This document shows, piece after piece, positions 2,709-20,000 of a stretch of DNA of 20,000 nt (positions are counted from its first letter, which is position 1; every line of letters starts with the position of its first letter). The position numbers were made by a program, and so were the translations under genes. The stretch comes from an uncultured virus (IMG/VR IMGVR_UViG_3300042467_002820). Taxonomy: Duplodnaviria > Heunggongvirae > Uroviricota > Caudoviricetes. The notes beneath the pieces were generated by a model. That model made no database searches, was not told where the DNA came from, and saw only the letters and a list, made by a program, of their open reading frames with translations. The stretch lies in the IMG/VR virus record IMGVR_UViG_3300042467_002820. The stretch is one strand, 5' to 3'.

Positions 2709-3293
2709 ATGATCTACCCCGCTACCTACAACCTGACGATTCTGCAAAACGCAACTTGGAAAGGTTCGTTTCGTGCCACGCAGAACCGTCAAACGCTCAG
2801 CAGTATCAGCATTGCAGGCGGTACGCCTACTTTTAACTGTGATTGCCACGGCTTAACGGCTGGCGACAAGGTTGTATTTACAGGTGGCACCACAATTCCA
2901 TGTGGCTTGACGCTTAATACGATCTACTACGTCATCTCTGCGGGTCTTACCACAGGTGCTTTTCAAGTCAGCGCTAGCAGCGGCGGTAGCAGCATCAGCG
3001 TCACTGGCACAGCAACTGGCACGTTTTACGTCGCCGAGCCCGTCAACTTAACCAGCTACGGCATCGACGCTGACATCCGTGGATTGATCGACAACAGTTC
3101 GATTGCAACATTCACGCCATCAATTACGACTGCTGCCGATGGTTTGTTTGAATTGCTGCTGCCAAAAGAAACCGCATTGACGCTTGCAGAAGGCCGCTAC
3201 GGCTGGGATTTGTCGCTGACTACCTCCGGCGGTGAGCGTTACTATTGGCTTACAGGTGTCGCCACCGTACAGCGCACGTACTCACGGAATTGA
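2709..3293 (+). CDS. Virion structural/baseplate-like protein
   Basis: 'PATYNLTILQNATW...VNLTSY...ADIR...YGWDLSLT...YWLTG' is a BppU-N-like pattern, interrupted by an 'HGLTAGDKVVF...LTLNTIYYV...FQVS' insert. Confidence 0.55.
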   Translation: MIYPATYNLTILQNATWKGSFRATQNRQTLSSISIAGGTPTFNCDCHGLTAGDKVVFTGGTTIPCGLTLNTIYYVISAGLTTGAFQVSASSGGSSISVTGTATGTFYVAEPVNLTSYGIDADIRGLIDNSSIATFTPSITTAADGLFELLLPKETALTLAEGRYGWDLSLTTSGGERYYWLTGVATVQRTYSRN

Positions 3294-3296
3294 TCC

Positions 3297-4937
3297 ATGT
3301 CTGACGTACAAATTGCGGTTATTGACCAGCAGGATACGCAAATCGTGCTGGCGGTACCTGGCGTGCAAGGCGCTACCGGCAGCTCAATTCCATCTGGCGG
3401 CACAGCAGATCAGGTGCTGCGCAAGAACAGCAGCACCAATTACGACGCCAACTGGTCGCAGGTGACCTCGGCGATGATCGCCGATGGAACCATCGTTAAT
3501 GCAGATGTCAACAACGGCGCTGCCATCGCTGGCACCAAGATCAGCCCGGATTTTGGCGGTCAAGCTGTTACGACCACAGGTCAGGTTAATGCTGCACGTG
3601 TCAACGTCACTGCAAACACAGCACCCAGCAACGGCATTTATCTACCTGCCTCAAACACCGTAGCGGTAGCAACTAATGGCACTGGGAGGTTGTTTGTTGA
3701 TGCGAGTGGCCGCGTAGGGGTGGGCACTACGAGCCCTGCAAGCGGACGCGCGCTGACATTGGATAACGCTTCTAATTACTATGGATTAGAGTTGCAAGTA
3801 GGCGGCACAAGTATTGGAAGTTTAATCCAAGAATCAACGGGCCTTCTTTATTTGGGCACTACAACTGCAGGCGGCGCTCTTGTATTGAGAAGTGGTAATC
3901 AAGCAGAAGCCGCCCGCATCGACTCCAGCGGCAGATTAGGCATAGGGACTAGTTCGCCTGGGTTTAAACTTACAATTGAAGACAGCGCAACACCTCGAAT
4001 TAGAATTGGCGATGGTGTCAGGCATCTAAACGTAGACGGTGGTTCTGCAAGTCAAAACGCAGCTATTGGCACAGATTACAGCGGTTCGTTTGGAATCTAC
4101 ACCAATGGCGCTGCAAATACTCGTCTTCATATAACCTCGGCAGGGCTTGTAGGGATTGGCACTACTGACGCTAGAGGCGTATTGCGGCTTGCAGGTTCAT
4201 CTGCAAATGCTTTTCCAAACAACGGCGGTCTGTTGTGGCTTACCGATACGAACGCTGCAACGGACTACAAAAACTGGAGTGTAAGTTCTATCAATGGAGA
4301 CTTTGGAGTAGCAAGAGGAAGTGACGCCTTTAATACGGGTCAAAACGCATACAAGATCACTGGATCGGCGACGCAAGGATATGTAGGCGAACACATCTGG
4401 TACACAAACAATTCAAGCGAGAAAGTCCGAATCTCAAACTCGGGGCAGCTCTTGGTTGGTACGTCTAGTGCGCTTAGCGGCCCCTACTGGACCAATTTGG
4501 CAAACTTGCAGGTAGCCGGTTCGTATGGCGTCGGACATTTTGCTACTTTTGTTAATTCAACTTCTGGCGCGGGCCTGGTTTTTCAAAAGAGCAGAAATGC
4601 TTCTGTCGGTGGCAATACCATCGTCAGTAATAACGATTTATTGATGGATATTTCCATTGAAGGAAACGATGGAACAGGATTTAAGCAAGCTGCGGTGATT
4701 CAATGCCAAGTAGACGGCACCCCTGGCGCTAACGACATGCCAGGCAGATTAGTGTTCTCCGTTACTGCTGATGGGGCGTCATCACCTACCGAAGCGATGC
4801 GGATCAAGAACTCCCGCATCCTTAATTTTGCCAACACGCCCACTTATGCTGACAACACAGCAGCCAAAGCCGGTGGATTGGTAGACGGTGACGTTTATCG
4901 CAAGTCGGATGGCACCTTGATGATCGTCTACACCTGA
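3297..4937 (+). CDS. Modular tail fibre protein
   Basis: Repeated 'R(I/L)..(S/A)G.(V/L)G(I/V)GT' fibre junction motifs, an IVNAD repeat and a 'DMPGRLVFS.TADGASSPTE.MRI' block. No C-terminal S74 chaperone is evident. Confidence 0.85.
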   Translation: MSDVQIAVIDQQDTQIVLAVPGVQGATGSSIPSGGTADQVLRKNSSTNYDANWSQVTSAMIADGTIVNADVNNGAAIAGTKISPDFGGQAVTTTGQVNAARVNVTANTAPSNGIYLPASNTVAVATNGTGRLFVDASGRVGVGTTSPASGRALTLDNASNYYGLELQVGGTSIGSLIQESTGLLYLGTTTAGGALVLRSGNQAEAARIDSSGRLGIGTSSPGFKLTIEDSATPRIRIGDGVRHLNVDGGSASQNAAIGTDYSGSFGIYTNGAANTRLHITSAGLVGIGTTDARGVLRLAGSSANAFPNNGGLLWLTDTNAATDYKNWSVSSINGDFGVARGSDAFNTGQNAYKITGSATQGYVGEHIWYTNNSSEKVRISNSGQLLVGTSSALSGPYWTNLANLQVAGSYGVGHFATFVNSTSGAGLVFQKSRNASVGGNTIVSNNDLLMDISIEGNDGTGFKQAAVIQCQVDGTPGANDMPGRLVFSVTADGASSPTEAMRIKNSRILNFANTPTYADNTAAKAGGLVDGDVYRKSDGTLMIVYT

Positions 4938-5440
4938 TGCCTGCGCCAGTTAAATCGCCTGATCCAAGCGAACTCTGGTGCTGTGGCTGTCAGCAGTTTT
5001 TACCGTTTGACAGCTTCTGGCCAGATAAGCATGCAGGCGCATACCGCGTGGGTCCAGACGGCAATCGTCGCAGCGCACGTTGCAAGGAATGCCGCAACAA
5101 GGAATACATCAAGATTGACCCACGCAAAAAGCTGTTGTACAACGCAAACAACAGAGCCAAGGATCGAGGGCTTGACTGCGACTTGACCGTTGACGACATC
5201 GTGATTCCTGAACTGTGCCCTGTGCTTGGCATCCCGCTTCAAGCAACAGTCGGTCAAGGCAGGGTTTCGATGAAAGACAACTGGAACGCACCGACGTTGG
5301 ATCGCATTGATTCCAATGGTGGCTACACCAAAGGCAACGTCATGGTCATTTCGGCTAGGGCGAACTTCCTTAAGAACGACGCCACACTGGAAGAAATGCA
5401 GGCAATTCTTCGCTACATGGAGAGTCACCAGCCACGGTGA
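4937..5440 (+). CDS. HNH-family endonuclease with N-terminal Zn finger
   Basis: TGATG coupling; CxxC...CxxC, then 'CPVLGIPL...PTLDRIDSNGGYTKGNVMVISARANFLKND'. Confidence 0.8.
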   Translation: MPAPVKSPDPSELWCCGCQQFLPFDSFWPDKHAGAYRVGPDGNRRSARCKECRNKEYIKIDPRKKLLYNANNRAKDRGLDCDLTVDDIVIPELCPVLGIPLQATVGQGRVSMKDNWNAPTLDRIDSNGGYTKGNVMVISARANFLKNDATLEEMQAILRYMESHQPR

Positions 5441-5458
5441 CGAGTCCCCTTCACTTCT

Positions 5459-5608
5459 ATGTCTGACACCACTGCCTACGAGGACTACTGCGAAGCCAGC
5501 CTTGACCTGAGCAATCAGGATGATGTTGGCGAAGCTGGAGCTATTGCAGCCCTGGATTCCTTGCACGCCAACAACAGCGAAGGCTTGCAGCGTCTTGCTG
5601 ACAGCTAG
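5459..5608 (+). CDS. 49-aa acidic hypothetical protein (cassette-like)
   Basis: ATG 5459 to TAG 5606-5608 (MSDTTAYEDYCEASLDLSNQDD...), bracketed by two AGTCC..(T/G)TCACT motifs. Confidence 0.55.
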   Translation: MSDTTAYEDYCEASLDLSNQDDVGEAGAIAALDSLHANNSEGLQRLADS

Positions 5609-5626
5609 CAGTCCACGTCACTGCTG

Positions 5627-5686
5627 GGTCTTATTAAAGGCTCAGCGGTGCATGTGAATAAGGGTCGGTCTTATTAAAGGCTCAGC
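5627..5686. repeat. Perfect 20-bp direct repeat GGTCTTATTAAAGGCTCAGC, two copies with a 20-bp spacer
   Basis: Copies at 5627-5646 and 5667-5686. Confidence 0.95.
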
Positions 5687-5771
5687 ACCCTTAGCCGTAT
5701 GTCACCAGGCGGGCAACCGGCCTATTCAACTGGTTGCACAACCAATAACCTGAACCATCGCCACTTCACTC

Positions 5772-6095
5772 ATGGCCACCACCTTCACCTGGAAGATTTC
5801 TCAGCTTGAAAGGGAGACCCTGGACGGCTATGTGTTCACCGCCCACTATGTGGTGGACGCCAACGACGGCACCTACAACTCTGGGGCCTACGGGTCGCTT
5901 GGTCTAGAGCGCCCTGAAGGTGAAATGATCCCCTTCGCTGACCTGACCGAAGAGCTGGTGGTCGGCTGGGTCAAAGAGAAGCTGACCGCCGAGAAGGTGG
6001 CAGAAATCGAGGCTGCGCTGCAGGCTCAGCTCGATGAGCAACACGCACCCAGCAAGGCAGCTGGTGTTCCTTGGAATGCTGCTCAGGCCGCTTAG
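5772..6095 (+). CDS. Small acidic tail-associated hypothetical protein, paralog A
   Basis: 'TFTWKISQLERETLDGYVFTAHY...GAYGSLGLERPEG.MIPFADLT.E.VVGWVKEKL...GVPW'; clear paralog of 7123-7455. Confidence 0.8.
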   Translation: MATTFTWKISQLERETLDGYVFTAHYVVDANDGTYNSGAYGSLGLERPEGEMIPFADLTEELVVGWVKEKLTAEKVAEIEAALQAQLDEQHAPSKAAGVPWNAAQAA

Positions 6096-6193
6096 TCGCG
6101 GTATCTACGCTGCGAGCGTTGTGCTAGGCATGGAGTGGGCCAGCGCGGTTGCACCCGCCTGACCCGTGATCAGATCCAGCTGTATTGGACCCG

Positions 6194-7087
6194 ATGGCCG
6201 AAGCCTATCGCTCGCAGACCGCTGCGCCCGTTTGCGCTCACACAGTTTCCGAAGTGTGGGCGATGTTCTTGCAAGAGCGCAGCATCTCGCTCTGCCCCAC
6301 CAGCCTCACTAGCGACTACCGGCAGGTGACGAAGTGGATGGGGCGCTGCCCAATCCAAGACCTTGCCCAAGGGCGGCAGGTGTTGATCTGGGTGCTGCAG
6401 CAGAAGCCGATCCTCACCGCTAGGCGCGTGTGCATGTATGTGCGCAGCATGTACCGCTGGGCGTGCGCTGAAGACGTTGGCCTGATCAGCGGCAACCCGG
6501 TCGCCAACTTCAGGATGCCCAAGGCGCCGCAGAAAAGCTGCGAGATCACCGTGATCCCTCGGCACGAGATCGCGCTGGTGCTCACAGCACTGACTGCAAA
6601 GCTCACCTACCGCGAAGTGGATTGGTCGCTATTTGCAGAGTTCATGCTGCAGACCGCCATGCGCACTGGCGAGGTCCGGGCCATGTGCTGGGACGACATC
6701 CAAGACGGCCGAGTGCTGGTGCATCGCAACTACACGCTGACGCACGGCCTGAAGGAAAGCACGAAAACCAACAAGAAGCGGTGGGTTCCGTTGAACTCCA
6801 AGTGCAAAGCGATCTTGCAAAACCTGCCCCGTGAGGACAGGTTCGTCTTCCCGTGGAACCGCCTCGCATTTCAGAGCTACTTTCGCAAGAAGCTTGCTCC
6901 GCTACACATGGCAGGACTGATTTCCCACCTTTATCGGCCGTACGACTGTCGCCACACGGCGATCAGCCGCTGGATCGAGGCAGGAATTCCGGTGCCACAG
7001 GTGGCAGCGTGGGCAGGAAACACAAGTGAAGTTATCTTTAAGCATTACTGCAACACCACGCAGGAATACGAAATCCCTGAGCTTTGA
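6194..7087 (+). CDS. Tyrosine recombinase lacking an arm-binding domain
   Basis: ATG at 6194. Catalytic motifs 'AMRTGEV' (R), 'STKT' (K), 'PYDCRH' (YxxR variant of HxxR) and 'AGNTSEVIFKHY' (Tyr nucleophile); about 297 aa. Confidence 0.9.
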   Translation: MAEAYRSQTAAPVCAHTVSEVWAMFLQERSISLCPTSLTSDYRQVTKWMGRCPIQDLAQGRQVLIWVLQQKPILTARRVCMYVRSMYRWACAEDVGLISGNPVANFRMPKAPQKSCEITVIPRHEIALVLTALTAKLTYREVDWSLFAEFMLQTAMRTGEVRAMCWDDIQDGRVLVHRNYTLTHGLKESTKTNKKRWVPLNSKCKAILQNLPREDRFVFPWNRLAFQSYFRKKLAPLHMAGLISHLYRPYDCRHTAISRWIEAGIPVPQVAAWAGNTSEVIFKHYCNTTQEYEIPEL

Positions 7088-7122
7088 GTTCGGGGACTAA
7101 AGTGACCCAGAGGAGCAATTCC

Positions 7123-7455
7123 ATGGCCACCAAATCCACCCCCGCACCCCAGCCCGTCGTCACCTGGGACATCGCCAACCTCGAGCGTGAGGTGAGCGAC
7201 GGCTACGTCTACACCGCCCACTGGACCGTCAGCTCCACCCTTGGTGAGTTCTCTGCCGGTGCCTACGGCTCTGTCGGCCTTGAGCGTCCCGAAGGCGACC
7301 TCATCCCGTTCGACCAGCTCAGCAAGGAGCAGGTGGTCGGCTGGGTCAAGGAGAAGCTCGGTGCCGAGCAGGTCGCAGCCACCGAGGCCGCCCTCGCGTC
7401 ACAGATCGCTGAACAGCAGGCTCCCAAAAAAGCAAGCGGCCTGCCCTGGGCTTAA
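7123..7455 (+). CDS. Small tail-associated hypothetical protein, paralog B
   Basis: GAGGAG upstream of ATG 7123; 'VTWDIANLEREVSDGYVYTAHW...GAYGSVGLERPEGDLIPF...VVGWVKEKL...GLPW'. Confidence 0.8.
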   Translation: MATKSTPAPQPVVTWDIANLEREVSDGYVYTAHWTVSSTLGEFSAGAYGSVGLERPEGDLIPFDQLSKEQVVGWVKEKLGAEQVAATEAALASQIAEQQAPKKASGLPWA

Positions 7456-7480
7456 ACTCCAACCGTCCAAAGGACCGCAC

Positions 7481-7651
7481 ATGAAAGAACAGCTCGTTCA
7501 ACTCATCGACGCTTACGCTGCTGCACGCGCCAGCGGCAACGGCACCCTTCAGCAGTTCGCTGCCCAGCAACTGTCGGCCTTCTTAGAGGCCATCGAGGTG
7601 ACCGCCAAGCAGCAGGCCGCTGACGAAGAAGGCGATGGCGGTCAAGAGTAA
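7481..7651 (+). CDS. Hypothetical protein (56 aa)
   Basis: AAGGA upstream of ATG 7481; MKEQLVQLIDAYAAARASGN... Confidence 0.65.
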   Translation: MKEQLVQLIDAYAAARASGNGTLQQFAAQQLSAFLEAIEVTAKQQAADEEGDGGQE

Positions 7652-7772
7652 GACCGGCACCGCTCGCATCGAGCACCAGCCCGGCCCACACAAGACCACC
7701 CGCCAGGGGTTCGGCCAACAAAGCCGGCCCCGGCGCCGTGGAAAGAAGCCCCTCAGGGGGCAAGGCCGGTAA
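7635..7772 (+). CDS. Small highly basic protein (45 aa)
   Basis: MAVKSKTGTARIEHQPGPHKTTRQGFGQQSRPRRRGKKPLRGQGR*; the ...RGQG(R/K) end resembles small basic cyanophage proteins (from recall). Confidence 0.7.
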   Translation: MAVKSKTGTARIEHQPGPHKTTRQGFGQQSRPRRRGKKPLRGQGR

Positions 7773-7924
7773 TGGACCCGGCCGTCCGCGAAAACTGGCG
7801 CAAGATCAGGGACGCGCTAGAAGCGGCAGGAAAAACTGACAACTGGTACTACAAGCGCGCTGTTGCCATCCTCGCCGGGAGGCCCGATCCTCTCGGCGAT
7901 GGGCCAACACTTCCCGGTGGTTAG
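7772..7924 (+). CDS. Hypothetical protein (50 aa)
   Basis: TAATG coupling; MDPAVRENWRKIRDALEAAGKTDNWYYKRAVAILAG... Confidence 0.65.
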   Translation: MDPAVRENWRKIRDALEAAGKTDNWYYKRAVAILAGRPDPLGDGPTLPGG

Positions 7925-7948
7925 GATCCTTTGGTTGCAAGGCGGCGC

Positions 7949-8212
7949 ATGGAGCGAGAAGTATCCCACGCTGAGATCTACAGGGAGCTCGGTGTGCTCC
8001 AAGGCAAGATGGACGCCATCCTGCTGAGCCAAACACGAGACGACGACGAGAAAAAGAACATCTTTGAGCGCATTGGAAAGCTCGAGACACGCATGGCGCA
8101 GGTGGTGCTTGTAGCTGTCATTGCAAGCTTGGTGCTGCCGCCCTTGGCATCATTCATGGGCCAGCACCTGCAGCTCAACCTCAAACCGACGACTGCCGTC
8201 ATCAACAGATAG
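7949..8212 (+). CDS. Coiled-coil plus single TM protein (XhlA/holin-like)
   Basis: Heptad-like N-terminus followed by hydrophobic 'VVLVAVIASLVLPPLASFM'; lies upstream of the endolysin. Confidence 0.55.
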   Translation: MEREVSHAEIYRELGVLQGKMDAILLSQTRDDDEKKNIFERIGKLETRMAQVVLVAVIASLVLPPLASFMGQHLQLNLKPTTAVINR

Positions 8213-8235
8213 GGCTAGCCTGAAGGAGACCTGCC

Positions 8236-8388
8236 ATGCCCGGCAACATGGATCCCAACACCGTCGCGATCATTGCGATCGTCGTCGCGGCAGCCTCTGA
8301 AGCCATTGCTCTGAGCCCCCTGCGCGCCAACAGCGTTGTTCAGCTCGTTCTGCAGTTCCTGCGCCTTGCATTCCCAAAAAAGCGCTGA
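8236..8388 (+). CDS. Putative holin (46-50 aa)
   Basis: AAGGAG RBS; in-frame ATGs at 8236 and 8248; MDPNTVAIIAIVVAAASEAIALSPLRANSVVQLVLQFLRLAFPKKR with a basic C-terminus, directly before the endolysin. Confidence 0.6.
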   Translation: MPGNMDPNTVAIIAIVVAAASEAIALSPLRANSVVQLVLQFLRLAFPKKR

Positions 8389-8394
8389 GCGCCC

Positions 8395-9570
8395 GTGAGC
8401 AACGCCGCCCCGATCAGTCTCGAGCAGCTGTTCCGCTACTACAAAGCCCTGCCCCATCAGGCGGCGGCCGTCGTAGAGCTGCAGAACGACTTGCGCGAAA
8501 ACGGCTACGCCGCCGCGATGCGTCGCGATAGGCCGTGGTTTGCTACGTGGAGCCAAGACGGCAAGCAGGCTGACCTGGCTCCGGCGCTTGCCATCATCAA
8601 GTCATTCGAGGGCTGTCACCTCGAGGCGTACCCAGATCCGCTGCACGGCTGGAACGTGGCCACGATCGGCTACGGCACCACCCGCTACAACGACGGGCGC
8701 AAGGTGCAGAAGGGCGACAAGATCAACGCGATCGAGGCCGACATGCTCCTGCGCCAGGAGGTCGATCGCATTGCCGCCAAGCTGGGCACCACCGTCCCCT
8801 TCTGGAAGGAGATGGGCGACTGTCAGAAGTCCGCGCTGATCTCCTTTGCCTACAACCTTGGCTCAGGCTTCTACGGCACCGAGGGCTTCAAAACCATCAG
8901 CGGTGCATTGCGCGACAAGCGCTGGAAGGATGTGCCCGCAGCGATGTTGCTCTACCGCAATCCCGGCACCAGCGTTGAAGCCGGCCTGAAGCGCCGCCGC
9001 AAGGCCGAAGGCGATCTCTGGCTTCAGGACATGGACGAGATGCCGGAGGAGCCGGTGCGTCTCGGCGTGCCCTACTTCAGCCAGCGCGACAACAAGTCCG
9101 GCCAGGGTTACCGCGAGTGCTTCTCGTCGAGCTGCGCAATGATCGCCGCCTTTTATGGCAAGGTCAAAACCGACGACGAGTACAACGCTGCTCGTGCGAA
9201 ATACGGCGACACCACCGAGCCCATTGCGCAGGTGAAGACACTGCAGTCGCTGGGGCTCAATGCGCGTTTCACTCAGAAGTGCTCGATCGCCCAGCTCGAG
9301 GCTGAGATCCAAGCCGGCCGGCCCATCGCTGTTGGCTGGCTGCACCATGGCACAGCCGCAGCGCCTACCGGTGGCGGCCACTGGACCGTGGCGATCGGTT
9401 TCAACCCGACGCAGATCGTTCACAACGACCCCTACGGCGAATGCGATCTGCTGAACGGCGGCTACCTCAACGCCAACGGCGCCGGCATCGGTTACAGCCG
9501 CAAGAACTGGCTGCGCCGGTGGGAAATCGAAGGCCCCGGCACTGGCTGGGCCGTACTGGTCTCAAAGTGA
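8395..9570 (+). CDS. Endolysin: GH24 lysozyme domain fused to a C39-like peptidase domain
   Basis: 'FEGCHLEAYPDP...TIGYGTT' (GH24 E/D/T), 'ALISFAYNLG', 'GLKRRRKAEGDLW'; then 'VPYFSQRDN...ECFSSSCAM...GGHW...NDPYG' (Cys-His-Asp). Confidence 0.9.
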   Translation: MSNAAPISLEQLFRYYKALPHQAAAVVELQNDLRENGYAAAMRRDRPWFATWSQDGKQADLAPALAIIKSFEGCHLEAYPDPLHGWNVATIGYGTTRYNDGRKVQKGDKINAIEADMLLRQEVDRIAAKLGTTVPFWKEMGDCQKSALISFAYNLGSGFYGTEGFKTISGALRDKRWKDVPAAMLLYRNPGTSVEAGLKRRRKAEGDLWLQDMDEMPEEPVRLGVPYFSQRDNKSGQGYRECFSSSCAMIAAFYGKVKTDDEYNAARAKYGDTTEPIAQVKTLQSLGLNARFTQKCSIAQLEAEIQAGRPIAVGWLHHGTAAAPTGGGHWTVAIGFNPTQIVHNDPYGECDLLNGGYLNANGAGIGYSRKNWLRRWEIEGPGTGWAVLVSK

Positions 9571-9636
9571 CGTTTTGCGACTGAATCGAGACTCGGGCCC
9601 GGCGGCCGGTATCTTGGGGCATCACCCGCGACCCGC

Positions 9637-10155
9637 ATGATCCTTCACGACCTCGAAATCAAGCGCTTCTGCGAAGAAGAGCGGATGATCGTCCCGTTCG
9701 ACCTCGACCAGCTCAACCCGGCCAGTTACGACCTGCTGCTGGGCAACGAGATCATGATCGAGAGCGCCACCAGCGATGAGCTGATCCGCGTCGACATCAG
9801 CGACTGCGATGAGGACAACCCCTGCCTGCTGAAGCCCGGCCAGTGGATCCTTGCGGAGACCTGGGAGACGTTCAACATGCCCAACGATGTGGCAGGGTTC
9901 TTCTTTCTCAAGTCGAGTCGCGCTCGCGAAGGTCTGGAGCACAGCCACGCCGGCTTCGCCGACCCGCAATGGAACGGCTCCAAGCTGACGCTGGAGCTCA
10001 CCAACGCCCGGCAGTTGCGGCCGCTCAAGCTGTGGCCCGGCAAGAAGATCGGTCAGATGGTCTTCATGCTGACGGCAGGGATCCCGGACATCTCCTACGC
10101 CGAAAAAGGACACTACAACCTGCAGCCCCGCGTGATGCCGTCATGGGAAGCCTGA
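9637..10155 (+). CDS. dcd: dCTP deaminase
   Basis: 'LNPASYDL', 'KSSRAREG', 'AGFADP.WNG..LTLELTN', 'IGQMVF', 'Y..KGHY..Q'. Confidence 0.9.
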   Translation: MILHDLEIKRFCEEERMIVPFDLDQLNPASYDLLLGNEIMIESATSDELIRVDISDCDEDNPCLLKPGQWILAETWETFNMPNDVAGFFFLKSSRAREGLEHSHAGFADPQWNGSKLTLELTNARQLRPLKLWPGKKIGQMVFMLTAGIPDISYAEKGHYNLQPRVMPSWEA

Positions 10156-10874
10156 TTGACTCCCGTTTCCGCGTCGATGCCCTCAACTGGACGATGGCGC
10201 CCGAGCAGCTCGTCTGGCAGGCTATGCACCAGGACTACTACGAGGGCTCGGTGCTTGATTGCGTTGCTCCGGAAGACCAGGAGGCTGGCCGGCTGGTGGT
10301 GAAGCACCTGCTAGCCGGTGAGCGCGGCCACTACGGCCCGCTCGAGCACCCGAGCATCACACTGGGCGTCGCAGGCTTTCCGCATTCGGTGATGCAGCAG
10401 GCACGCACGCATCGCGTGGGTATCAGCTTTGACGTGCAGTCGATGCGCTACACCGGCAAGCGGATTTGCAAGGTGGCAGAAGGCAAAGCTGATGTTGAGG
10501 ACGTGTTCTATTTGCGCCCGCTGGGCGAGTACCGTGATAGGCAGGGTAAAAAGTACATCTACACGGAGTCTCAACGAGAAGCCGACCTTGAAATGTGTTT
10601 CGGCGCCGCACAGGTTTACTGGAACCGCCTGAGGGTCGGCTGGGCCGAAGAACACGCTCGCGGCATGATCCCCTTCGACTTCCGCCAAAACTTCGTCGTC
10701 ACCTTCAACCTGCGCTCGGCGCTCCACTTCATGGATCTGCGCTCCAAGGCTGATGCACAGCCTGAGATCCAGGCCATGTGCGATCTGATGTGGCCAGTAA
10801 TCCACCGGTGGACACCGGAAATCGCCGCCTGGTACGAGCGCACTAGGCTGCACAAAGCCCGCCTGGCCCCATGA
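10143..10874 (+). CDS. thyX: Flavin-dependent thymidylate synthase
   Basis: 'GHYGPLEH', 'QQARTHRVGISFDVQSMRY', 'EEHARG', 'FNLRSALHFMDLR...AQPEI'; likely start ATG 10143, overlapping the end of dcd. Confidence 0.92.
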   Translation: MGSLIDSRFRVDALNWTMAPEQLVWQAMHQDYYEGSVLDCVAPEDQEAGRLVVKHLLAGERGHYGPLEHPSITLGVAGFPHSVMQQARTHRVGISFDVQSMRYTGKRICKVAEGKADVEDVFYLRPLGEYRDRQGKKYIYTESQREADLEMCFGAAQVYWNRLRVGWAEEHARGMIPFDFRQNFVVTFNLRSALHFMDLRSKADAQPEIQAMCDLMWPVIHRWTPEIAAWYERTRLHKARLAP

Positions 10875-11173
10875 GATTCGCCTCTCGCGACGGCACAGTC
10901 ACGTTTGAGGAAGGGCTCGAGACTGCCTACGAGCTGTTTCGTGATGGTCGCATCTTGGATGCGGCCATGATGTTCCTCGTCTATGCAGACCCCGACGCGA
11001 TCGGCATCGTCGGCGAGAGCGAATACGACGCTCTCGCTGCGCATTTCAAAGAAATGATGGCGTACGTAAAGCTGTACCAGATGATCTGCGACGAGCTCGC
11101 GCAGCCACTGCTCAGCGAAGACGGCAAGCCGGCCTACATGGTCGGGCCGGCAGCCGAGGACGACGAATACTAG
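10871..11173 (+). CDS. Acidic hypothetical protein (100 aa)
   Basis: ATGA coupling to thyX; convergent with the integrase. Confidence 0.6.
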   Translation: MRFASRDGTVTFEEGLETAYELFRDGRILDAAMMFLVYADPDAIGIVGESEYDALAAHFKEMMAYVKLYQMICDELAQPLLSEDGKPAYMVGPAAEDDEY

Positions 11174-12270
11174 ATCTGATCAGCCACGGCCCTCGCCATA
11201 GCCTGCGCCCCATCCTCGAGCAGGTGCGCATAGCGGCTGGTGGTCAGCGGGCTGGCGTGACCAAGCAGATTGCCGACCTGCGGCAGCGTCAGGCCGACCT
11301 TGGTGATCGCCACCGAGGCCCAGTGGTGCCTCAAATCGTGGCATTTGAGATCCTTGATTTCGGCAAGCACCATCAGCTCTTCCCATAGGTTCTGATACCC
11401 CACCAGATAGCCATCGTCCTGCCCTGCGATAATCCATTGTGTATTCGATCTGAGTCTCAGTTCTCTCAAGATGAGAATTCCTGCAGGAGGAATATGCACT
11501 ACACGTTTTTGGCCAGTGTGCTCACCAGTTTTGTGATGCTCGGCGGGAATCGCCAGCAAGCCTGCCTTCTCGTCGAACCACTCCCATCTGGCACGGCAGA
11601 TTTCGCTCACGCGGCACCCCGTCAGCATCAGCAGTCGCACCAGTTGAGCGAACCGCCAGCGCAGTGGCGAGGTGGCTATCGCGCCCAGTGCGGCCACCAG
11701 CCGCTGCCGCTCTTCGCCTGACAGATAACGCCGCCGCTTGCGCTCGGTGTTGGCCGGCACCTTGGCGCAAGGATTGTCCGCTCGCAGGCCCCACAGGATC
11801 GACAGGTTGAACGCCTTGCGCAGCACCGCCAGCGTCCGGTTGGCCTGGATGGGCCGGATGCGCGAGAGCAGCCGCATCACGTCGGCGCTGGTGATCATCT
11901 GCACCTTCTGGCGGCCCAGTTTCGGGATGATGTGAACGTCCCAGATGCTCTGGTAGTTCTTCGCCGTGCCCGGCCGCAGTTTGGGATAGTGCTCGGCCAG
12001 CAGGCGCTGGTACAGATCGGTCATGTCAGGGCCGCGGCGCAGCTCCTGGCGGGCGCTGGTGGGTGCATGCCCACGCGCCACGGCGGCAAGGATCTTGTGC
12101 GCCTCTTCGCGGGCCAGTGTGCGGTTGAGGATGTCAGCCCGACCGATCTTGTGATGCTGCTGCTTGCCGCTCGGTTCGCGGTAGCGCAGGTACCAGGTTT
12201 CGACCCCGCTCGGCAGCACCAGCAGGCCCAGTCCGGTGACCTTTGAATCGGGCTTCCACTCACGTTTCAT
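11170..12270 (-). CDS. int: Phage integrase (tyrosine recombinase with N-terminal arm-binding domain)
   Basis: GGAGG upstream of ATG 12270. Arm domain 'DSKVTGLGLLVLPSGVETWYLRYR...KIG'; catalytic 'LTGCRVSEI', 'HKTG', 'HDLRH', 'LLGH...TT.RYAH'. Confidence 0.93.
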   Translation of the reverse strand: MKREWKPDSKVTGLGLLVLPSGVETWYLRYREPSGKQQHHKIGRADILNRTLAREEAHKILAAVARGHAPTSARQELRRGPDMTDLYQRLLAEHYPKLRPGTAKNYQSIWDVHIIPKLGRQKVQMITSADVMRLLSRIRPIQANRTLAVLRKAFNLSILWGLRADNPCAKVPANTERKRRRYLSGEERQRLVAALGAIATSPLRWRFAQLVRLLMLTGCRVSEICRARWEWFDEKAGLLAIPAEHHKTGEHTGQKRVVHIPPAGILILRELRLRSNTQWIIAGQDDGYLVGYQNLWEELMVLAEIKDLKCHDLRHHWASVAITKVGLTLPQVGNLLGHASPLTTSRYAHLLEDGAQAMARAVADQI

Positions 12271-12281
12271 GCGTCCCTCCA

Positions 12282-12507
12282 TTCGCGCACTATTCGCGCA
12301 GATTTGCGCGAATTTGCGGTAAATTGCGCGAATCAGCCGAAAAACGCAATAGCGGATCTTGTTGATGAATCAGATGTTTAATGAGTTTGCGTGAAGTTGC
12401 GTGAGACTTCCGAAAGAGACTTTTAATCAGTTGATCAGGCTGATTTTTGTGAGTGAAAACAAGGGGTTAGGCAGTAGCAGAAATCACGTTCGCGCAGTAT
12501 TCGCGCA
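12282..12507. other. attP-like region: arm-type repeats, IHF-like sites and a tRNA-Lys anticodon-like core
   Basis: TTCGCGCA at 12282, 12293, 12489 and 12500; inverted TGCGCGAA at 12305 and 12325; WATCARNNNNTTR match at 12368-12380; GACTTTTAATCAGTTG at 12418-12433. Confidence 0.75.
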
Positions 12508-12514
12508 AGCTTTC

Positions 12515-12588
12515 GGGCCCATAACTCAACGGTAGAGTGGCGAACTTTTAATTCGCAAATCTCGGTTCAACTCCGAGTGGGCCTACCA
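12515..12588 (+). tRNA. trnK: tRNA-Lys (anticodon TTT) with encoded CCA
   Basis: Acceptor GGGCCCA/TGGGCCT, D arm ACTC-AACGGTA-GAGT, anticodon arm GCGAA-CTTTTAA-TTCGC, T arm CTCGG-TTCAACT-CCGAG, discriminator A then CCA. Confidence 0.93.
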
Positions 12589-12666
12589 ACCAAAACCCGC
12601 AGTGATCCCAAAGAAATCGTTGCATCCCGTCACGGTCGCTACCGTGGTGCAAGCCGCGGCGCCACT

Positions 12667-12900
12667 GTGCCGACCTACCTGCTCGAGGTGGCCGCCAAGG
12701 TTGTTGTGCATAGCGACGAGGACTCCATCGAGGAGTTCATCGAGAACACCTATGCGCGCATTGTCGAGTTCGTCCCCAGCGACGAGCACATCGTCGATAT
12801 CGAGCTGGATGCCTTTCCCCTACCCCAGGAGCCAGGTGGATCATCAGATCTCGGAGACGGAGCTGATCACGAGGAAGGAGGCGAGGCTGCGGTTTCGTGA
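12667..12900 (+). CDS. Acidic hypothetical protein
   Basis: Likely GTG start (MPTYLLEVAAKVVVHSDEDSIEEF...); GC3-rich codon usage like neighbouring genes. Confidence 0.55.
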   Translation: MPTYLLEVAAKVVVHSDEDSIEEFIENTYARIVEFVPSDEHIVDIELDAFPLPQEPGGSSDLGDGADHEEGGEAAVS

Positions 12901-13162
12901 TCAGATCCACCTGGCCTGGGACCACCGATGCGCATACTGCTCGGACCAGCTTGGCCGCAGTCCGACGCTCGATCACGTCATCCCCAAGGCGCACGGTGGC
13001 CTAACTGTCAGGGAAAACCTGGTCAGCTCATGCTGGCACTGCAATATCTCGAAGGGCCAGTCCCCTTGGATTGACTGGTATCGCAAGCAACCCTTCTGGT
13101 CCGCCGCCAACGAGTGGGCGATCGCGCAGTGGCTTGCTGGTGGTGCTAATTTGTCGGCCTAG
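12836..13162 (+). CDS. HNH endonuclease (small, Zn-binding)
   Basis: 'CAYC...TLDHVIPKAHGGLTVRENLVSSCWHCNISKG...W.DWY'; likely GTG start at 12836. Confidence 0.85.
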   Translation: MDHQISETELITRKEARLRFRDQIHLAWDHRCAYCSDQLGRSPTLDHVIPKAHGGLTVRENLVSSCWHCNISKGQSPWIDWYRKQPFWSAANEWAIAQWLAGGANLSA

Positions 13163-13183
13163 ACCTTTTCTGAGGATCTAGGC
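13157..13183. terminator. Hairpin between convergent transcription units
   Basis: GCCTAGA-CCTT-TTCT-GAGG-A-TCTAGGC overlapping the HNH stop; no clear U tract. Confidence 0.45.
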
Positions 13184-13258
13184 GGTACCGTAGCGGCCGG
13201 CTGCGGTGAGCCCTGTGGCGCGTGAGCCCTGGGCACCGGCCATCACATTCATGCCAAA

Positions 13259-13329
13259 GGGAAGCGGCTGGACTTGAACCAGCACTGAGTTCGGATTGTC
13301 TCCGCTGCCTCTGCTTGGGCTACGCTTCC
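13259..13329 (-). ncRNA. tRNA-like element with an aberrant anticodon arm
   Basis: Minus strand reads GGAAGCG-TA-GCC..GGC-A-GCGGAGACAATCCGAACTCAGT-GCTGG-TTCAAGT-CCAGC-CGCTTCC-C: perfect 7-bp acceptor stem and T arm, non-canonical anticodon loop, no CCA. Confidence 0.7.
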
Positions 13330-13365
13330 GGCCCGATGCCGAAGCAGAGCGGGAACCCGATCAGC

Positions 13366-13536
13366 TTATCGCGCCAGCAAATGGTCTAGATACAGCTCCG
13401 CTTGCCACATGTCGCTCGAGTAGCGACAGTAGCCATGGGCGCAGCTGCGGTAGTAGATCTCGAAACCCGGGCGATCCAGCGTCTCGATGTAGCCGCCGTC
13501 GCGTTCGGTGCGGCTGATCACTTCCGGGTCGGACAT
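13366..13536 (-). CDS. Hypothetical protein (56 aa)
   Basis: MSDPEVISRTERDGGYIETL...YYRSCAHGYCRYSSDMWQA; overlaps the end of the upstream gene. Confidence 0.6.
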   Translation of the reverse strand: MSDPEVISRTERDGGYIETLDRPGFEIYYRSCAHGYCRYSSDMWQAELYLDHLLAR

Positions 13537-13856
13537 GCCTTGAAAACCGAGCACTGCGCGGCGAATCTCCCACCAGTCTGGCGGGCTTCCGGCCAGCCGA
13601 ATCCGCATTGTGCGTTAATGCCCTCCCAGTGGATGCACTGCCAGCACATCGGTCGATCGTCAACGCGCTTGCTCAGCTTGCGTTTCAGATCGGCGTAGAT
13701 CCGCTCAGCCCTGAAGATTGCCTCCTCGGCATTGCTGGTCTCAAGACTGGCTTTTGTTTGGTGCTCAGGGCTGGCACCAAGCTTGATGCGAACATGCCAG
13801 ACGGTGCCCTGCTGATGCAGGACCATCCGCCCGGCATGAAATCGCATCATCCCCAT
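13518..13856 (-). CDS. Hypothetical protein: arm-DNA-binding-like N-terminus plus Cys-rich C-terminus
   Basis: 'VWHVRIKLG.....KASLETSN.EEA..RA..IY' followed by 'CWQCIHW...CGFGWPE...FAAQC'. Confidence 0.6.
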   Translation of the reverse strand: MGMMRFHAGRMVLHQQGTVWHVRIKLGASPEHQTKASLETSNAEEAIFRAERIYADLKRKLSKRVDDRPMCWQCIHWEGINAQCGFGWPEARQTGGRFAAQCSVFKACPTRK

Positions 13857-14413
13857 AAGGCCGCGTCGATCTTGCGACGGAATTGTTCAAGGCTGCCATC
13901 ATTTTGAATGACAACATCAAATCCGTCCCAGTCGTCGAGAGCACCTTCTGAGGGGTGGTCGGTGTTGCGCTGCGCTGATGGGCGGATAATCTTCCACATC
14001 TGCCCGCCGATCGCCTTGACCGCTTCGGCCTCGTTGGCAAACCGCACGTCGTCTGTCACGACGGTGTCATGACGTCGAACCCGTGCTTCCCAGCAGCGAA
14101 TCCACAGATCGTCAGCGATCTGCTGGCGGCCCCACTCGGTGCCGATCGTTTGTAGTAGCCAGCGGGCCGTGCAGCCGATCTCCGGGATGTGCTTGTGCTT
14201 ATCGACCCAGACCAGCTTGAGCGCTTCGTCCTCGCGGTAGCCGAAACCCTCTAAGAAGGTCACCGCCATGCGCTTGAGCGGCTCAGCAAAGCTGATCGGC
14301 TGGAAGCCACTATGGACGAGCACCGTTGCAGTGAAAGTTTTGCCCGACTGTGGCGCCGGGCTGTAGATGCCGATCACCTGCTGCGGCCGGTCGCGGTCGT
14401 AGTCGTTGTTCAT
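13847..14413 (-). CDS. Deoxynucleoside monophosphate kinase
   Basis: P-loop-like 'SPAPQSGKT', 'SFAEPLK', 'RWLLQTIGTEWGR', 'VTDDVRFANEA', 'HPSE' (T4 gp1-like family); ATGA-coupled start at 14413. Confidence 0.88.
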   Translation of the reverse strand: MNNDYDRDRPQQVIGIYSPAPQSGKTFTATVLVHSGFQPISFAEPLKRMAVTFLEGFGYREDEALKLVWVDKHKHIPEIGCTARWLLQTIGTEWGRQQIADDLWIRCWEARVRRHDTVVTDDVRFANEAEAVKAIGGQMWKIIRPSAQRNTDHPSEGALDDWDGFDVVIQNDGSLEQFRRKIDAALWG

Positions 14414-14622
14414 CGATCGAACGCCTCCGGGTCGATGCTCTGTACATCCCACCAAGCTTGCCGCGCCTCCTCGGCACCGCGCTGGCAGAATTCCTGCCAC
14501 AGGCCGGTGTAAGTGGAGTTCAGTGGGTGGCCGCTGGGCAGCCTGTCTCGGCCAGATTGTTCATAGAGGTGATCGAGGAACTCAGCCTTCATCTGCTCGA
14601 TCTTGGGGTGGCAGTCAAACAT
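14410..14622 (-). CDS. Hypothetical protein
   Basis: MFDCHPKIEQMKAEFLDHLYEQSGR...HPLNSTYTGLWQ; overlap-coupled at both ends. Confidence 0.6.
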   Translation of the reverse strand: MFDCHPKIEQMKAEFLDHLYEQSGRDRLPSGHPLNSTYTGLWQEFCQRGAEEARQAWWDVQSIDPEAFDR

Positions 14623-14812
14623 CGTGTCCAGCAAGCAAACGTGCATGGGCCATTGCCTTCGAGTGTGTGTCGAAGGACGGGCCCCAGGTAACAGTGGCGC
14701 CATCGAAGCACCACGGTTGGAACGCTAGCCCCAGTCCGCGGTCGACAGGATGGACGCCATAGCAGGGATGGTTCTGGCCTTTCCAGACGCCCTGCTCGGA
14801 TTGAATCACCAT
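14615..14812 (-). CDS. Hypothetical protein
   Basis: MVIQSEQGVWKGQNHPCYGVHP...FQPWCFDG; overlap-coupled. Confidence 0.5.
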   Translation of the reverse strand: MVIQSEQGVWKGQNHPCYGVHPVDRGLGLAFQPWCFDGATVTWGPSFDTHSKAMAHARLLAGHDV

Positions 14813-14964
14813 TGATCCTCCAAGCCAAGCACTTCGACATGGCAGTCGGGGTGCAGCTCGGCGGCCATCCAATGGGCGTTGGTGGCGGTGACGGCCCAGG
14901 CCAGCCAGACCCAGCTATCACCATCGGGTCGGGTCAGGCGGATGCGGTAGAAGCCGGGGGTCAT
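14806..14964 (-). CDS. Hypothetical protein (52 aa)
   Basis: MTPGFYRIRLTRPDGDSWVWLAWAVTATNAHWMAAELHPDCHVEVLGLEDQW*; ATGA-coupled. Confidence 0.55.
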   Translation of the reverse strand: MTPGFYRIRLTRPDGDSWVWLAWAVTATNAHWMAAELHPDCHVEVLGLEDQW

Positions 14965-15140
14965 GATTTGTCAGGCAAGGGGATTAGGCGCCACTCGGTG
15001 ACCTCTCTGTTCCAGTCTTCCCAAGTGTCTTGGTTGCACCAGCCACCGCACATTTGGCTCATGCGGCACGCCGGGAACCATTCGTTGTCAGAGCTGTTGC
15101 GCACCCAGTACCAGCGGTGCTCGATCAGCGGATCGGTCAT
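14961..15140 (-). CDS. Trp-rich hypothetical protein
   Basis: MTDPLIEHRWYWVRNSSDNEWF...EVTEWRLIPLP; ATGA-coupled. Confidence 0.55.
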   Translation of the reverse strand: MTDPLIEHRWYWVRNSSDNEWFPACRMSQMCGGWCNQDTWEDWNREVTEWRLIPLPDKS

Positions 15141-15226
15141 GGCAGGATTTTCTTGCAGAGGCAGATGAAGGCGATGCAGATCAGCCAGTAGGCGCCTGCG
15201 AGGTAGAGGGCGGTAGAGAGGGTCAT
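15137..15226 (-). CDS. 29-aa single-TM microprotein
   Basis: MTLSTALYLAGAYWLICIAFICLCKKILP*; ATGA overlaps at both ends. Confidence 0.5.
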   Translation of the reverse strand: MTLSTALYLAGAYWLICIAFICLCKKILP

Positions 15227-15474
15227 TCGGCGAGCTGCTCCAGTGCGCGGCGGATGGTGTCTTGGCAGTCAAGAAATGCCGTTGGATTAGGGCCAGTAGC
15301 GATATGCGCTAGGGCATCAAGTGCCTGCTTTTTCAAGCTTGGCGGCTCGGGCTGGGATAGGGCGGCTCGGGCGCGGTCCAGCACCTTAGCGTTGGGGCCA
15401 TCCGGGCTCGCATAGCACTGCCATCCTTCCAGTTGTTTCACCAGCTCAGCGCAAAGTGCTCGGAAGTCAGTCAT
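15223..15474 (-). CDS. Mosaic hypothetical protein (PSLK.QAL...IRRALE family)
   Basis: MTDFRALCAEL...RARAAL.QPEP + PSLKKQAL...DTIRRALEQL. Confidence 0.65.
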   Translation of the reverse strand: MTDFRALCAELVKQLEGWQCYASPDGPNAKVLDRARAALSQPEPPSLKKQALDALAHIATGPNPTAFLDCQDTIRRALEQLAE

Positions 15475-15796
15475 CGGGAAGGGCCTCTAGGGCGCGGCGG
15501 ATGGTGTCGGCAGCTCCTTCCTTGAGGTAGCCCCTGTCGAAACTGATGTGCAGCTCATCAAGCGCCTGCTCCTTCAGGCTCGGGGGCTTGGGCCGGCGTG
15601 CGGCGCGGAGTTCGTCGTGCGCCCAATAGGTCTGCTTGCTTTTGACCCACTCACAGCACGCCTCCAGCTCCTGGTCTGCGCCCCATTGGGCGGCCTTGGT
15701 GGCAACATCAGTTGCCCACTGATCGACAGGATATGCCTTGGCGCCTAAGTACCACTGCAATACCAGCTCCGGCGGTGGGGTGATGGGGTGAGTCAC
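15467..15796 (-). CDS. Mosaic hypothetical protein (THPITPPPEL family)
   Basis: GTG start with GTGA overlap; paralog of 18487-18858. Confidence 0.7.
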   Translation of the reverse strand: MTHPITPPPELVLQWYLGAKAYPVDQWATDVATKAAQWGADQELEACCEWVKSKQTYWAHDELRAARRPKPPSLKEQALDELHISFDRGYLKEGAADTIRRALEALPDD

Positions 15797-16182
15797 GCCT
15801 CCACCTCCGCCGGCATCAACATCTGCCGGATCCGAGTAGCCGTGAACGGCCCGCGTGCAATCCGTCCCCAGATCACGCGCATCGCCACCACGGCCTCTTG
15901 ATCGGCCATGCAGCTGCCGCATTCATCCAGCGCCTTGGTTACTGCCTGGTGAGTCTCGCGGTACAGCTGCGGGTCGGGCTGCATCAGCGCATCACGCCAT
16001 GCAGCGACCTCACCAAGCGACTGCACACCGAAGTTCTTGAGCTTCATCAGGTCGGCCGTGGTGGCCAGCATGATCTGCTCAGCGGTGAAGTAGCCGCCCC
16101 GCAACAGGCTGTTGATCGTGCGGGTTTGCATGTAGCGCATGGTTTCCGGGATCAGCCGAAAATCGTCTTCAGTTGGGTGCAT
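15793..16182 (-). CDS. Protein with an RNA polymerase alpha-CTD-like domain
   Basis: 'RTINSLLRGGYFTAEQIMLATTADLMKLKNFGVQSLGEV' aligns by eye with the alpha-CTD pattern 'R..N.L...I.....L......LL...NFG.KSL.E'. Confidence 0.7.
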   Translation of the reverse strand: MHPTEDDFRLIPETMRYMQTRTINSLLRGGYFTAEQIMLATTADLMKLKNFGVQSLGEVAAWRDALMQPDPQLYRETHQAVTKALDECGSCMADQEAVVAMRVIWGRIARGPFTATRIRQMLMPAEVEA

Positions 16183-16390
16183 TGATCGAGTTCAGATGGT
16201 CAATCAGTTCTTGGCGCGACTGCCACATGGGACGGCCGTCAATCTTGCGCTCCATTTCGGTGATGGCGCGATGCAGGCCCTTCAGATACCAAAACCGGCT
16301 GATCGCAGCGACCTTGGGCGCCTGCTCCAGCAGCTGCTCCCAGATCTTGTCGGGGCAGCTATCCCAATCGATGTCATCACGCACGGTCAT
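16169..16390 (-). CDS. Hypothetical protein
   Basis: MTVRDDIDWDSCPDKIWEQLL...; start position uncertain. Confidence 0.45.
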   Translation of the reverse strand: MTVRDDIDWDSCPDKIWEQLLEQAPKVAAISRFWYLKGLHRAITEMERKIDGRPMWQSRQELIDHLNSINAPN

Positions 16391-16565
16391 CCACGGCTGC
16401 AGTGCCTGCTGGAGTGTCATCGAACGGGTCAAGCCATTGGATGCGGTCGTACCAGGGTCCATACTCTGCAAAGGCTTTGCTTTTGGCATCGGAGAAATTG
16501 GTGGCAGCAACGAAATCGAAGATGTTCGATTCGGGGATGGTGAAGTGGTAGTGGCGTTCAGTCAT
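16377..16565 (-). CDS. Hypothetical protein (62 aa)
   Basis: MTERHYHFTIPESNIFDFVAATNFSDAK...; ATGA-coupled. Confidence 0.6.
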   Translation of the reverse strand: MTERHYHFTIPESNIFDFVAATNFSDAKSKAFAEYGPWYDRIQWLDPFDDTPAGTAAVDDRA

Positions 16566-16890: not shown

Positions 16891-16949
16891 GTCTGGTGGG
16901 GTGGACGAGTCAATGATGCCGGGCGCCACCGAGCAGTGGGCATGAGTTG

Positions 16950-19985: not shown

Positions 19986-20000
19986 GCCGCCACCTCCACC

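Follow-up and report, generated by a model that had tools for sequence, protein, structure and literature searches.

Conserved in-frame codon words at the module junctions of a cyanophage tail-fibre gene, and an adjacent tyrosine recombinase that does not appear to drive module exchange

Tail fibres set the host range of phages, and cyanophages shape freshwater and coastal Synechococcus populations. Shufflons and fibre inversion systems include Rci/sfx of R64, Gin of phage Mu, Cin of P1 and Min of p15B. A shufflon in a Bifidobacterium prophage (PMC6109161) is used here as a comparison system. In the distal tail-fibre/adhesin genes of the T-even phages (gp37/gp38), recombination has been reported to occur between conserved motifs (Tetart et al. 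1996, 1998, as covered in PMC3157838). Here we consider a stretch of 20,000 nucleotides (the window, i.e. the whole of the DNA analysed) from an uncultured virus (IMG/VR record IMGVR_UViG_3300042467_002820), in which a modular tail-fibre gene carries in-phase copies of the palindromic motif TAG-N9-CTA and lies upstream of a gene for a two-domain tyrosine recombinase. A preliminary description of this DNA had proposed that the recombinase shuffles fibre modules at the motif. We find that the fibre copies belong to conserved codon words at which related fibres change partners, and that the distribution of these words is independent of the recombinase.

The window is part of a Synechococcus siphovirus-like phage; the closest isolates at the DNA level are S-LBS1, S-CBS3 and S-CBS1, and fibre segments are also common to the window and several T7-like cyanopodoviruses. 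The tail-fibre gene has a GC content of 0.51 and a GC content at third codon positions of 0.48, compared with about 0.6 and 0.7-0.8 for its neighbour genes; the fibre region ranges over 0.40-0.51, and the remainder of the phage DNA is at about 0.6. The gene and its word sites are:

3297-4937, + strand: tail-fibre gene, modular, 546 amino acids; matches phrog_18345 (E 1.3e-51) and phrog_9942 (E 5.7e-49)
3661-3675, + strand: class-A word variant TAGCGGTAGCAACTA (VAVATN), phase 1; relatives mostly have TAGCCATCTCGACTA (VAISTN)
3715-3729, + strand: class B/C-type word TAGGGGTGGGCACTA (VGVGTT), identical in the viral record G001 and the related locus L084
3937-3951, + strand: word TAGGCATAGGGACTA (LGIGTS), the same word in S-H1 and L084
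4150-4164, + strand: class-C word TAGGGATTGGCACTA (VGIGTT), the most common word among relatives
4453-4467, + strand: class-D word variant TGGTTGGTACGTCTA (LVGTSS); the consensus of relatives is TAGTTGGCACGTCTA
4750-4764, + strand: class-E word variant TAGTGTTCTCCGTTA (LVFSVT); perfect identity to G001 starts at its first base

On re-checking, every motif coordinate given in the preliminary description proved correct. The window holds six perfect copies of TAG-N9-CTA (starting at 3661, 3715, 3937, 4150, 6093 and 15297), where 1.26 are expected, and none of 200 dinucleotide shuffles reached six. All four perfect fibre copies lie in codon phase 1 of the open reading frame (ORF) 3297-4937, as do the one-mismatch copies at 4453 and 4750, so that the earlier claim of a single codon phase holds for all six. 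The codon-shuffled null that had been suggested as a check likewise bore out enrichment: synonymous-codon shuffling of the fibre gene gave a mean of 0.96 copies, with at least four in 196 of 20,000 shuffles (P = 0.0098). For one-mismatch copies the window shows no enrichment (40, compared with 41.1 expected); those at 4453 and 4750 owe their relevance solely to homology with perfect words of relatives. Among internal DNA repeats in the fibre gene, a 17-nt word alone repeats.

A query with the recombinase gave 80 related viral loci, of which 45 have an upstream fibre ORF of the same family. These 45 ORFs contain 140 sites in 78,213 bp (1.79/kb), compared with 124 sites in 655,403 bp (0.19/kb) of the non-fibre DNA of the related loci, and all fibre sites except four are in phase 1. 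The sites fall into five stereotyped 15-nt words at module starts, i.e. class A, TAGCCATCTCGACTA (VAISTN); class B, TAGGTCTGGGGACTA (V/LGLGTS); class C, TAGGGATTGGCACTA (V/LGIGTT); class D, TAGTTGGCACGTCTA (LVGTSS/T); and class E, TAGTGTTCTCCACTA (LVFSTT). Each word encodes the first strand of the repeated module, with the pattern hydrophobic-x-hydrophobic-x-T/S-T/S/N, and a gene carries 2-11 words in a single reading phase. The fibre family with these words is common to freshwater and estuarine Synechococcus siphoviruses and T7-like podoviruses, and the words with short flanks are nearly the sole DNA homology between otherwise very divergent modules. A limited search of the cyanophage literature, including the accessible parts of PMC6157547 and PMC4646655, found no description of the words.

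The conservation of the words is at the nucleotide level and covers all five codons, beyond the TAG and CTA bases alone. Among 501 distinct word contexts, 367 have the perfect motif, 80 have TAG only, 26 CTA only and 28 neither. Major alleles at third positions reach 0.8-1.0 in four of the five main classes; in class A one codon is at 0.59, and a small GVG set is much looser. The first word codon is of the form xTA in 62 of 67 cases for Val (93%) and 105 of 114 for Leu (92%), and the fifth, before A-starting codons, is of the form xCT in 102 of 107 for Thr (95%) and in all 41 for Ser (100%). Elsewhere in the same genes, xTA before G-starting codons accounts for 130 of 676 Val codons (19%) and 109 of 600 Leu codons (18%), and xCT for 144 of 837 Thr codons (17%) and 109 of 869 Ser codons (13%); these same-context shares led us to reject context-dependent codon bias as the cause of the xTA-G and xCT-A choices. 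At degenerate codons for identical amino acids, identical codons make up a fraction of 0.68-0.90 within words, compared with 0.33-0.58 in the 12-codon flanks; conservation reaches past the 15-mer in classes A and E. The codon choice in the words and their synonymous conservation relative to the flanks thus support the earlier statement that the protein repeat does not force the palindrome.

The palindrome is probably not itself the conserved unit. Classes A, B/C and E align in register (hydrophobic-x-hydrophobic-x-T-T), and their GTA/TTA and ACT/TCT codons differ at first positions only, which is what paralogous words with frozen synonymous sites would keep. Class D, by our own reading of the words, is offset by one codon relative to class C, with a shared core TTGGCAC, and because of this shift in register its TAG...CTA is not positionally homologous. 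Only 75 of 133 class-D words have the TAG-N9-CTA form; its loss is mostly due to a sixth codon TCN instead of AGT or ACT, with TTAGTTGGCACGTCT retained and codons 1-5 conserved. A frozen codon accident is the most likely account of the palindrome.

The words coincide with mosaic breakpoints. Two shared segments within the fibre gene are:

3672-3738, + strand: 67-bp island, 97% identical to G001, within otherwise unalignable fibre DNA
4136-4804, + strand: module block, 97% identical to the related locus L064, reaching from 14 bp ahead of the class-C word to 40 bp past the class-E word

Comparison with G001, a 55.8-kb viral record, gives no mismatch in the 15,251 bases of window positions 4750-20000, perfect identity starting at the T of the class-E site (4750); upstream of this point the two are unalignable save for the 67-bp island and a second one at 3904-3931 (93%). 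When all fibre pairs were compared for shared blocks with a minimum of 150 bp and 95% identity, each of the 19 distinct internal block ends fell in the range -50 to +64 relative to a word, compared with 25% expected at random, and all seven left ends were at -20 to -1. Contigs from four lake-water metagenome runs, which as assemblies show variants and branch points rather than molecules or rates, begin their match to the window at 4740 in all four cases, with loose ends at 3670/3672, 3709, 3717, 3738, 3904, 4153, 4706-4710 and 4745-4747; runs with a partial word share were left out of any reading of habitat. The proposals that the sites lie at module junctions and that mosaic breakpoints would fall on them are thus borne out, by the block ends, G001, L064 and the lake contigs alike, and the window fibre, to judge from these comparisons, is a patchwork of exchanged modules. 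Two contig joints, one from 3738 to 4134 and the other from 5452 to 6371, were considered as excision products and rejected. The shorter side of such joints has 18-33 letters, the intervening sequence is unknown, and they are other fibre or locus variants.

We consider it probable that the exchange of fibre modules depends on homology at the conserved in-frame linker words, as in the T-even fibre genes. The TAG-N9-CTA copies would be the visible part of the five words, and modules would be swapped in frame by homology-dependent recombination at the word patches, with, we infer, co-infecting phages or resident phage DNA as partners. The palindrome would be incidental, ancestral GTA/TTA and ACT/TCT codons having been kept because whole words are conserved.

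Several points weigh against this proposal. Homologous recombination alone leaves the frozen synonymous sites of the words, with their drifting flanks, unexplained; nor does it account for the retention of xTA and xCT codons across different classes, or for the recurrence of xTA...xCT-A in class D despite its shift by one codon. The core words, at 15-17 nt, are short for RecA-type exchange. Perfect identity to G001 sets in precisely at base 1 of the class-E site, and a site-specific event would predict the same. The informative block ends number only 19 and come from loci that are not phylogenetically independent, and the metagenome runs are all represented by assembled contigs.

Between the fibre gene and position 7455 lie an endonuclease-like gene, the recombinase gene and two copies of a DUF7936 gene:

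4937-5440, + strand: HNH/endonuclease-VII-like gene; matches phrog_3322 (E 1.3e-33)
5772-6095, + strand: DUF7936 copy A (PF25590, E 5.8e-34), 99% identical to the related locus L010
6185-7087, + strand: two-domain tyrosine recombinase, probable start ATG 6194 (PF00589, E 1.6e-12)
7085-7099, + strand: degenerate TGA-N9-CTA at the recombinase stop, a chance occurrence
7123-7455, + strand: DUF7936 copy B (PF25590, E 8.5e-33)

The recombinase, of 297-300 amino acids, is predicted to be catalytically intact and of two domains. It matches PF00589 with 47.9 bits (cut-off 27.1) and has no match to an arm-domain profile. R157, R253, H254, W273 and Y285, to which we assign the roles of the family's catalytic pattern (Arg...Arg-His...His/Trp...Tyr), are invariant in all 24 aligned homologues; a Tyr, Y250, occupies the usual position of the first His. 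The predicted structure has a mean predicted local distance difference test (pLDDT) score of 67, with a confident catalytic domain (mostly about 70-94 at residues 121-280) and an N-terminal part consisting of four helices only, at low pLDDT. A Foldseek search with the model ranks the Tn1549 integrase first (E 9.7e-10), then a Staphylococcus aureus integrase, lambda Int, XerA/XerH, IntI and Cre. The Tn1549 integrase, the lambda Int core, XerA/XerH, IntI and Cre would thus have the same two-domain tyrosine-recombinase fold as the window recombinase, at 11-20% sequence identity and with no family-level sequence match. Among NCBIfam models there are weak partial matches to XerC/XerD and none further, and a sequence search of the PDB gave no match. 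In sequenced prokaryotes, with one genome per species, the recombinase was found in two contigs of metagenome-assembled genomes only, with no obvious integrated copy.

Of 31 loci that extend 4 kb upstream, 26 have the recombinase next to a fibre of the same family, and DUF7936 follows that family in 40 of 47 loci, whether the recombinase is present or not. In 52 related loci with sufficient flanking sequence the recombinase is downstream of DUF7936 in 17 and upstream in 28, no DUF7936 is nearby in seven, and none is flanked on both sides; the recombinase is an optional gene, on either side of the fibre-linked DUF7936. The two flanking copies in the window may be understood from the recombinase gene, which is chimeric and combines two lineages. 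Its first part follows L010, a locus of the type with the recombinase downstream of DUF7936, at 96-97% protein and about 95% DNA identity, and near 6674 the DNA identity to L010 drops to about 65-70%; the C-terminal part has 85-92% protein identity to loci with the recombinase upstream of DUF7936. One crossover within the recombinase thus accounts for the DUF7936-recombinase-DUF7936 layout with its two paralogues. The junction near 6674 is inside a conserved coding box (RTGEVRA), without TAG-N9-CTA, so the recombinase was itself made chimeric by an ordinary, motif-free crossover near the fibre locus, a point in favour of homology-dependent exchange.

The words are equally dense with and without the recombinase. 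When viral contigs were scanned for the class-E word, 47 loci had 4 kb or more of downstream sequence, seven with the recombinase and 40 with DUF7936. For the 45 loci left when two duplicates were dropped, with the recombinase scored within 6 kb downstream, site density is 1.79/kb in the seven recombinase-positive and 1.64/kb in the 38 recombinase-negative loci, the latter being incomplete contigs on which a recombinase could lie elsewhere. The isolate genomes, being complete, do not have this escape: among 50,697 isolate records a close recombinase homologue occurs only in S-LBS1 (71.5% identity; next best 24-26%), and in-phase words number five in S-CBP3, four in S-H1, three in S-LBS1, two in S-CBP4 and two in 7B11-B. 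An equal motif density in phages lacking the recombinase is what the preliminary description had named as grounds for giving up its proposal.

We consider it very improbable that the adjacent arm-less recombinase recognizes TAG-N9-CTA as a site for the exchange, excision or insertion of in-frame fibre modules; in a variant of this reading, co-infecting phages might be its substrates in trans, and register would be kept by the class-specific 9-bp spacers. The predicted intact two-domain enzyme, its frequent position beside the fibre family and the breakpoints on the sites, including one identity boundary exactly at TAG, are consistent with such a role, and the conserved class-specific spacers would suit an overlap-region homology rule. 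The Tn1549 integrase, the best Foldseek match of the model, tolerates heterologous spacers. However, the core site of a tyrosine recombinase consists of inverted arms of about 9-13 bp around a 6-8-bp overlap, whereas here only TAG and CTA (3+3 bases) are common across classes and the spacer is 9 bp. Besides the word density without the recombinase, the 58 of 133 class-D words that lack TAG-N9-CTA with the rest of the word kept, and the conservation beyond the 15-mer in classes A and E, argue against recognition of the motif; although the window and G001 differ inside the spacer of site 1, they still share the patch on its right. The degenerate copy at the recombinase stop, pointed out in the preliminary description, is due to chance, a stop followed by N9 and CTA being present in two of 56 distinct relatives. 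Nor does the locus resemble a shufflon or an integron. All fibre sites are in one ORF, one phase and one orientation, with no inverted sites; inverted repeats in the fibre gene are short, not arranged around the motif sites and, by our own estimate, at chance level. Silent alternative C-terminal cassettes were not found, the downstream genes being those for HNH, DUF7936 and the recombinase, and the sole minus-strand ORF within the fibre gene is at 4197-4394 (65 amino acids). The recombinase is not of the IntI type, having no match to TIGR02249 and only the weak partial ones to XerC/XerD. It does not appear that the recombinase drives the swapping of fibre modules. Because the frozen synonymous sites and the shifted class-D register are left unexplained by homologous recombination, we nevertheless keep a very small probability for a dedicated enzyme, i.e. 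for the words being in-frame exchange signals read by a trans-acting enzyme that circulates among freshwater cyanophages, be it the two-domain recombinase or the fibre-linked HNH nuclease. If so, fibre-module exchange between siphoviruses and podoviruses would be programmed, not accidental.

Two other readings were considered. The words may be conserved for another reason at the nucleic acid level, with the breakpoints secondary, which we regard as unlikely, although the localized synonymous conservation is in its favour. Slowed translation at rare codons at each module start might aid folding or trimer registry, and the word codons are indeed the rarest in the other genes of the phage (GTA 6% of Val, TTA 2% of Leu, ACT 14% of Thr, TCT 6% of Ser); however, they are not rare in fibre genes (xTA is 18-21% of Val/Leu codons outside words), and the common codons GGC, GTG and TTC are equally frozen within words. 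Alternatively, cuts in the words by the fibre-linked HNH/endonuclease-VII-type nuclease could trigger gene conversion. The HNH gene overlaps the fibre stop codon (ATGA) in the window as well as in G001, and the annotation of 7B11-B has three endonuclease VII genes close to the fibre, but most loci lack the gene, L081 and L089 alone having it among the 80 related loci. Such a sporadic distribution is as might be expected, by analogy, of a homing endonuclease. The remaining reading, which we consider improbable, has the words as the product of shared ancestry of a repeated structural motif and of sampling of related phages, the breakpoints being artefacts of alignment extension with no role in recombination. 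The loci are not independent samples, and the ends of high-scoring segment pairs fall necessarily at the edges of conserved patches. The more distant fibres of S-CBP2 and RN05-S, moreover, retain the peptide motifs with the words lost, and in a lake variant LVFSTT is specified by a very dissimilar set of codons, CTCGTCTTTTCTACGACC. However, flanks with equally conserved peptides have drifted at synonymous sites, and long blocks of 97-100% identity stop at words next to unalignable neighbour modules, which requires exchange at or beside the words.

Two further features lie upstream of the recombinase:

6093-6107, + strand: intergenic TAG-N9-CTA, its TAG being the stop codon of DUF7936 copy A
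6138-6164, + strand: conserved leader hairpin/imperfect palindrome, with three covarying pairs in 25 sequences; not recombinase-specific

The preliminary description placed a perfect motif copy at the stop of the paralogue, and this stands; such a copy recurs 86-101 bp upstream of the recombinase start (at -86, -92 or -101) in 14 of 80 loci, although with variable spacers. It sits in the promoter/leader region, directly upstream of the leader hairpin, and the unrelated leader of L262 also has one. The leader (6120-6193) comprises, in order, a -10-like box, a first hairpin with 11-bp arms around a 6-nt centre (GGCCAGCGCGG / 6 nt / CCGCCTGACC; 6138-6164) and a second small hairpin with a variable loop directly before the start codon. 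The first hairpin was considered as a core site of the recombinase and rejected, since only 31 of 52 viral loci with the pattern have the recombinase downstream; the pattern occurs once in G001. At least seven loci without the recombinase carry the same extended leader before unrelated genes (the L222, L230, L236, L252, L261, L262 and L265 leaders), which code for small ribbon-helix-helix-like proteins (our own reading of the sequences), HNH-like proteins and others. A shared regulatory leader is more likely, and it is a candidate for a new cis-regulatory element; Rfam gave no match at the fibre or recombinase leader.

DUF7936 may be a partner of the fibre. It is found downstream of the fibres in S-CBP3, S-H1, S-CBP2, S-CBP4, 7B11-B and S-LBS1. 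Its predicted structure, a confident model (pLDDT 88.4), consists of three strands and a long helix, and Foldseek gave no match to it at E of 0.001 or better; a profile search of the PDB gave only matches at E 0.14 or weaker, and an Atlas search found DUF7936 clusters only.

Other genes in the window are:

3-938 and 812-2230, + strand: two fibre-like ORFs
2230-2685, + strand: tail-fibre assembly chaperone
2709-3293, + strand: ORF
8395-9570, + strand: endolysin
9637-10155, + strand: dCTP deaminase
11170-12282, - strand: second integrase, with an arm-DNA-binding domain (PF13356, PF14659, PF00589)
12515-12588, + strand: tRNA-Lys(ttt), full gene

The tRNA-Lys gene and the adjoining arm-type integrase (11170-12282) are probably the classical attachment module of the phage; the 80 related loci were not found to have it within their flanks. 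Rfam gives a second, weaker tRNA-like match at 13259-13329 (- strand). The perfect TAG-N9-CTA at 15297-15311, the sole other one in the window, has no link to the fibre words and gives no indication of being anything beyond chance. At 5452, a little past the end of the HNH gene, further lake contigs part from the window. In the region that follows, a small conserved ORF (5461-5610, ending ...RLADS) is directly upstream of a terminator-like hairpin (5605-5627), after which a 20-nt direct repeat (GGTCTTATTAAAGGCTCAGC) occurs twice, about 43 bp apart (5605-5690). An intergenic word, GTAGTC(C/A)..TTCAC or TAGTGTCCCCG, recurs right after gene ends (5447-5462 in the window; L056, L060, L065 and many other loci) and may be a phage promoter or terminator signal.

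Among described loci, that of S-LBS1 is closest in gene order. Its integrase A12 is the closest isolate homologue of the recombinase, and the order fibre, recombinase, DUF7936 is the same; unlike in the window, the S-LBS1 block is placed between the head and tail genes. Its authors there proposed lysogeny from the homologue, with no integration seen after mitomycin C (PMC6157547). The window phage, unlike S-LBS1, adds an arm-type integrase with tRNA-Lys.

As in shufflons and inversion systems, a recombinase gene lies beside a host-range gene and crossover sites are inside coding sequence. Shufflons, however, have inverted sites and silent cassettes in one genome, whereas here the sites are co-oriented in one ORF without cassettes, and the words also occur without the recombinase. 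The locus thus provides a caution, in that a recombinase gene beside a repeat-bearing host-range gene is no evidence of action on that gene.

The locus offers a genuine and fairly clean case of fibres evolving by modules via conserved in-frame DNA words, and the T-even fibre genes are the closest parallel. It shows, at nucleotide resolution, the assembly of a fibre from modules with short in-frame words as junctions, and unrelated phage morphotypes of the same waters share these words. Their strong synonymous conservation is a concrete and testable argument for the old view that linkers are maintained in phages so that modules can be exchanged, and raises the question of what maintains the words. 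As in gp37/gp38, hypervariable segments are set apart by short conserved motifs, exchange in or close to these motifs gives rise to chimeric fibres, and a dedicated site-specific enzyme is not involved. Unlike the T-even motifs, the words described here are 15-nt codon strings frozen at synonymous sites, with 2-11 per gene in one phase, and are common to Synechococcus siphoviruses and T7-like podoviruses.

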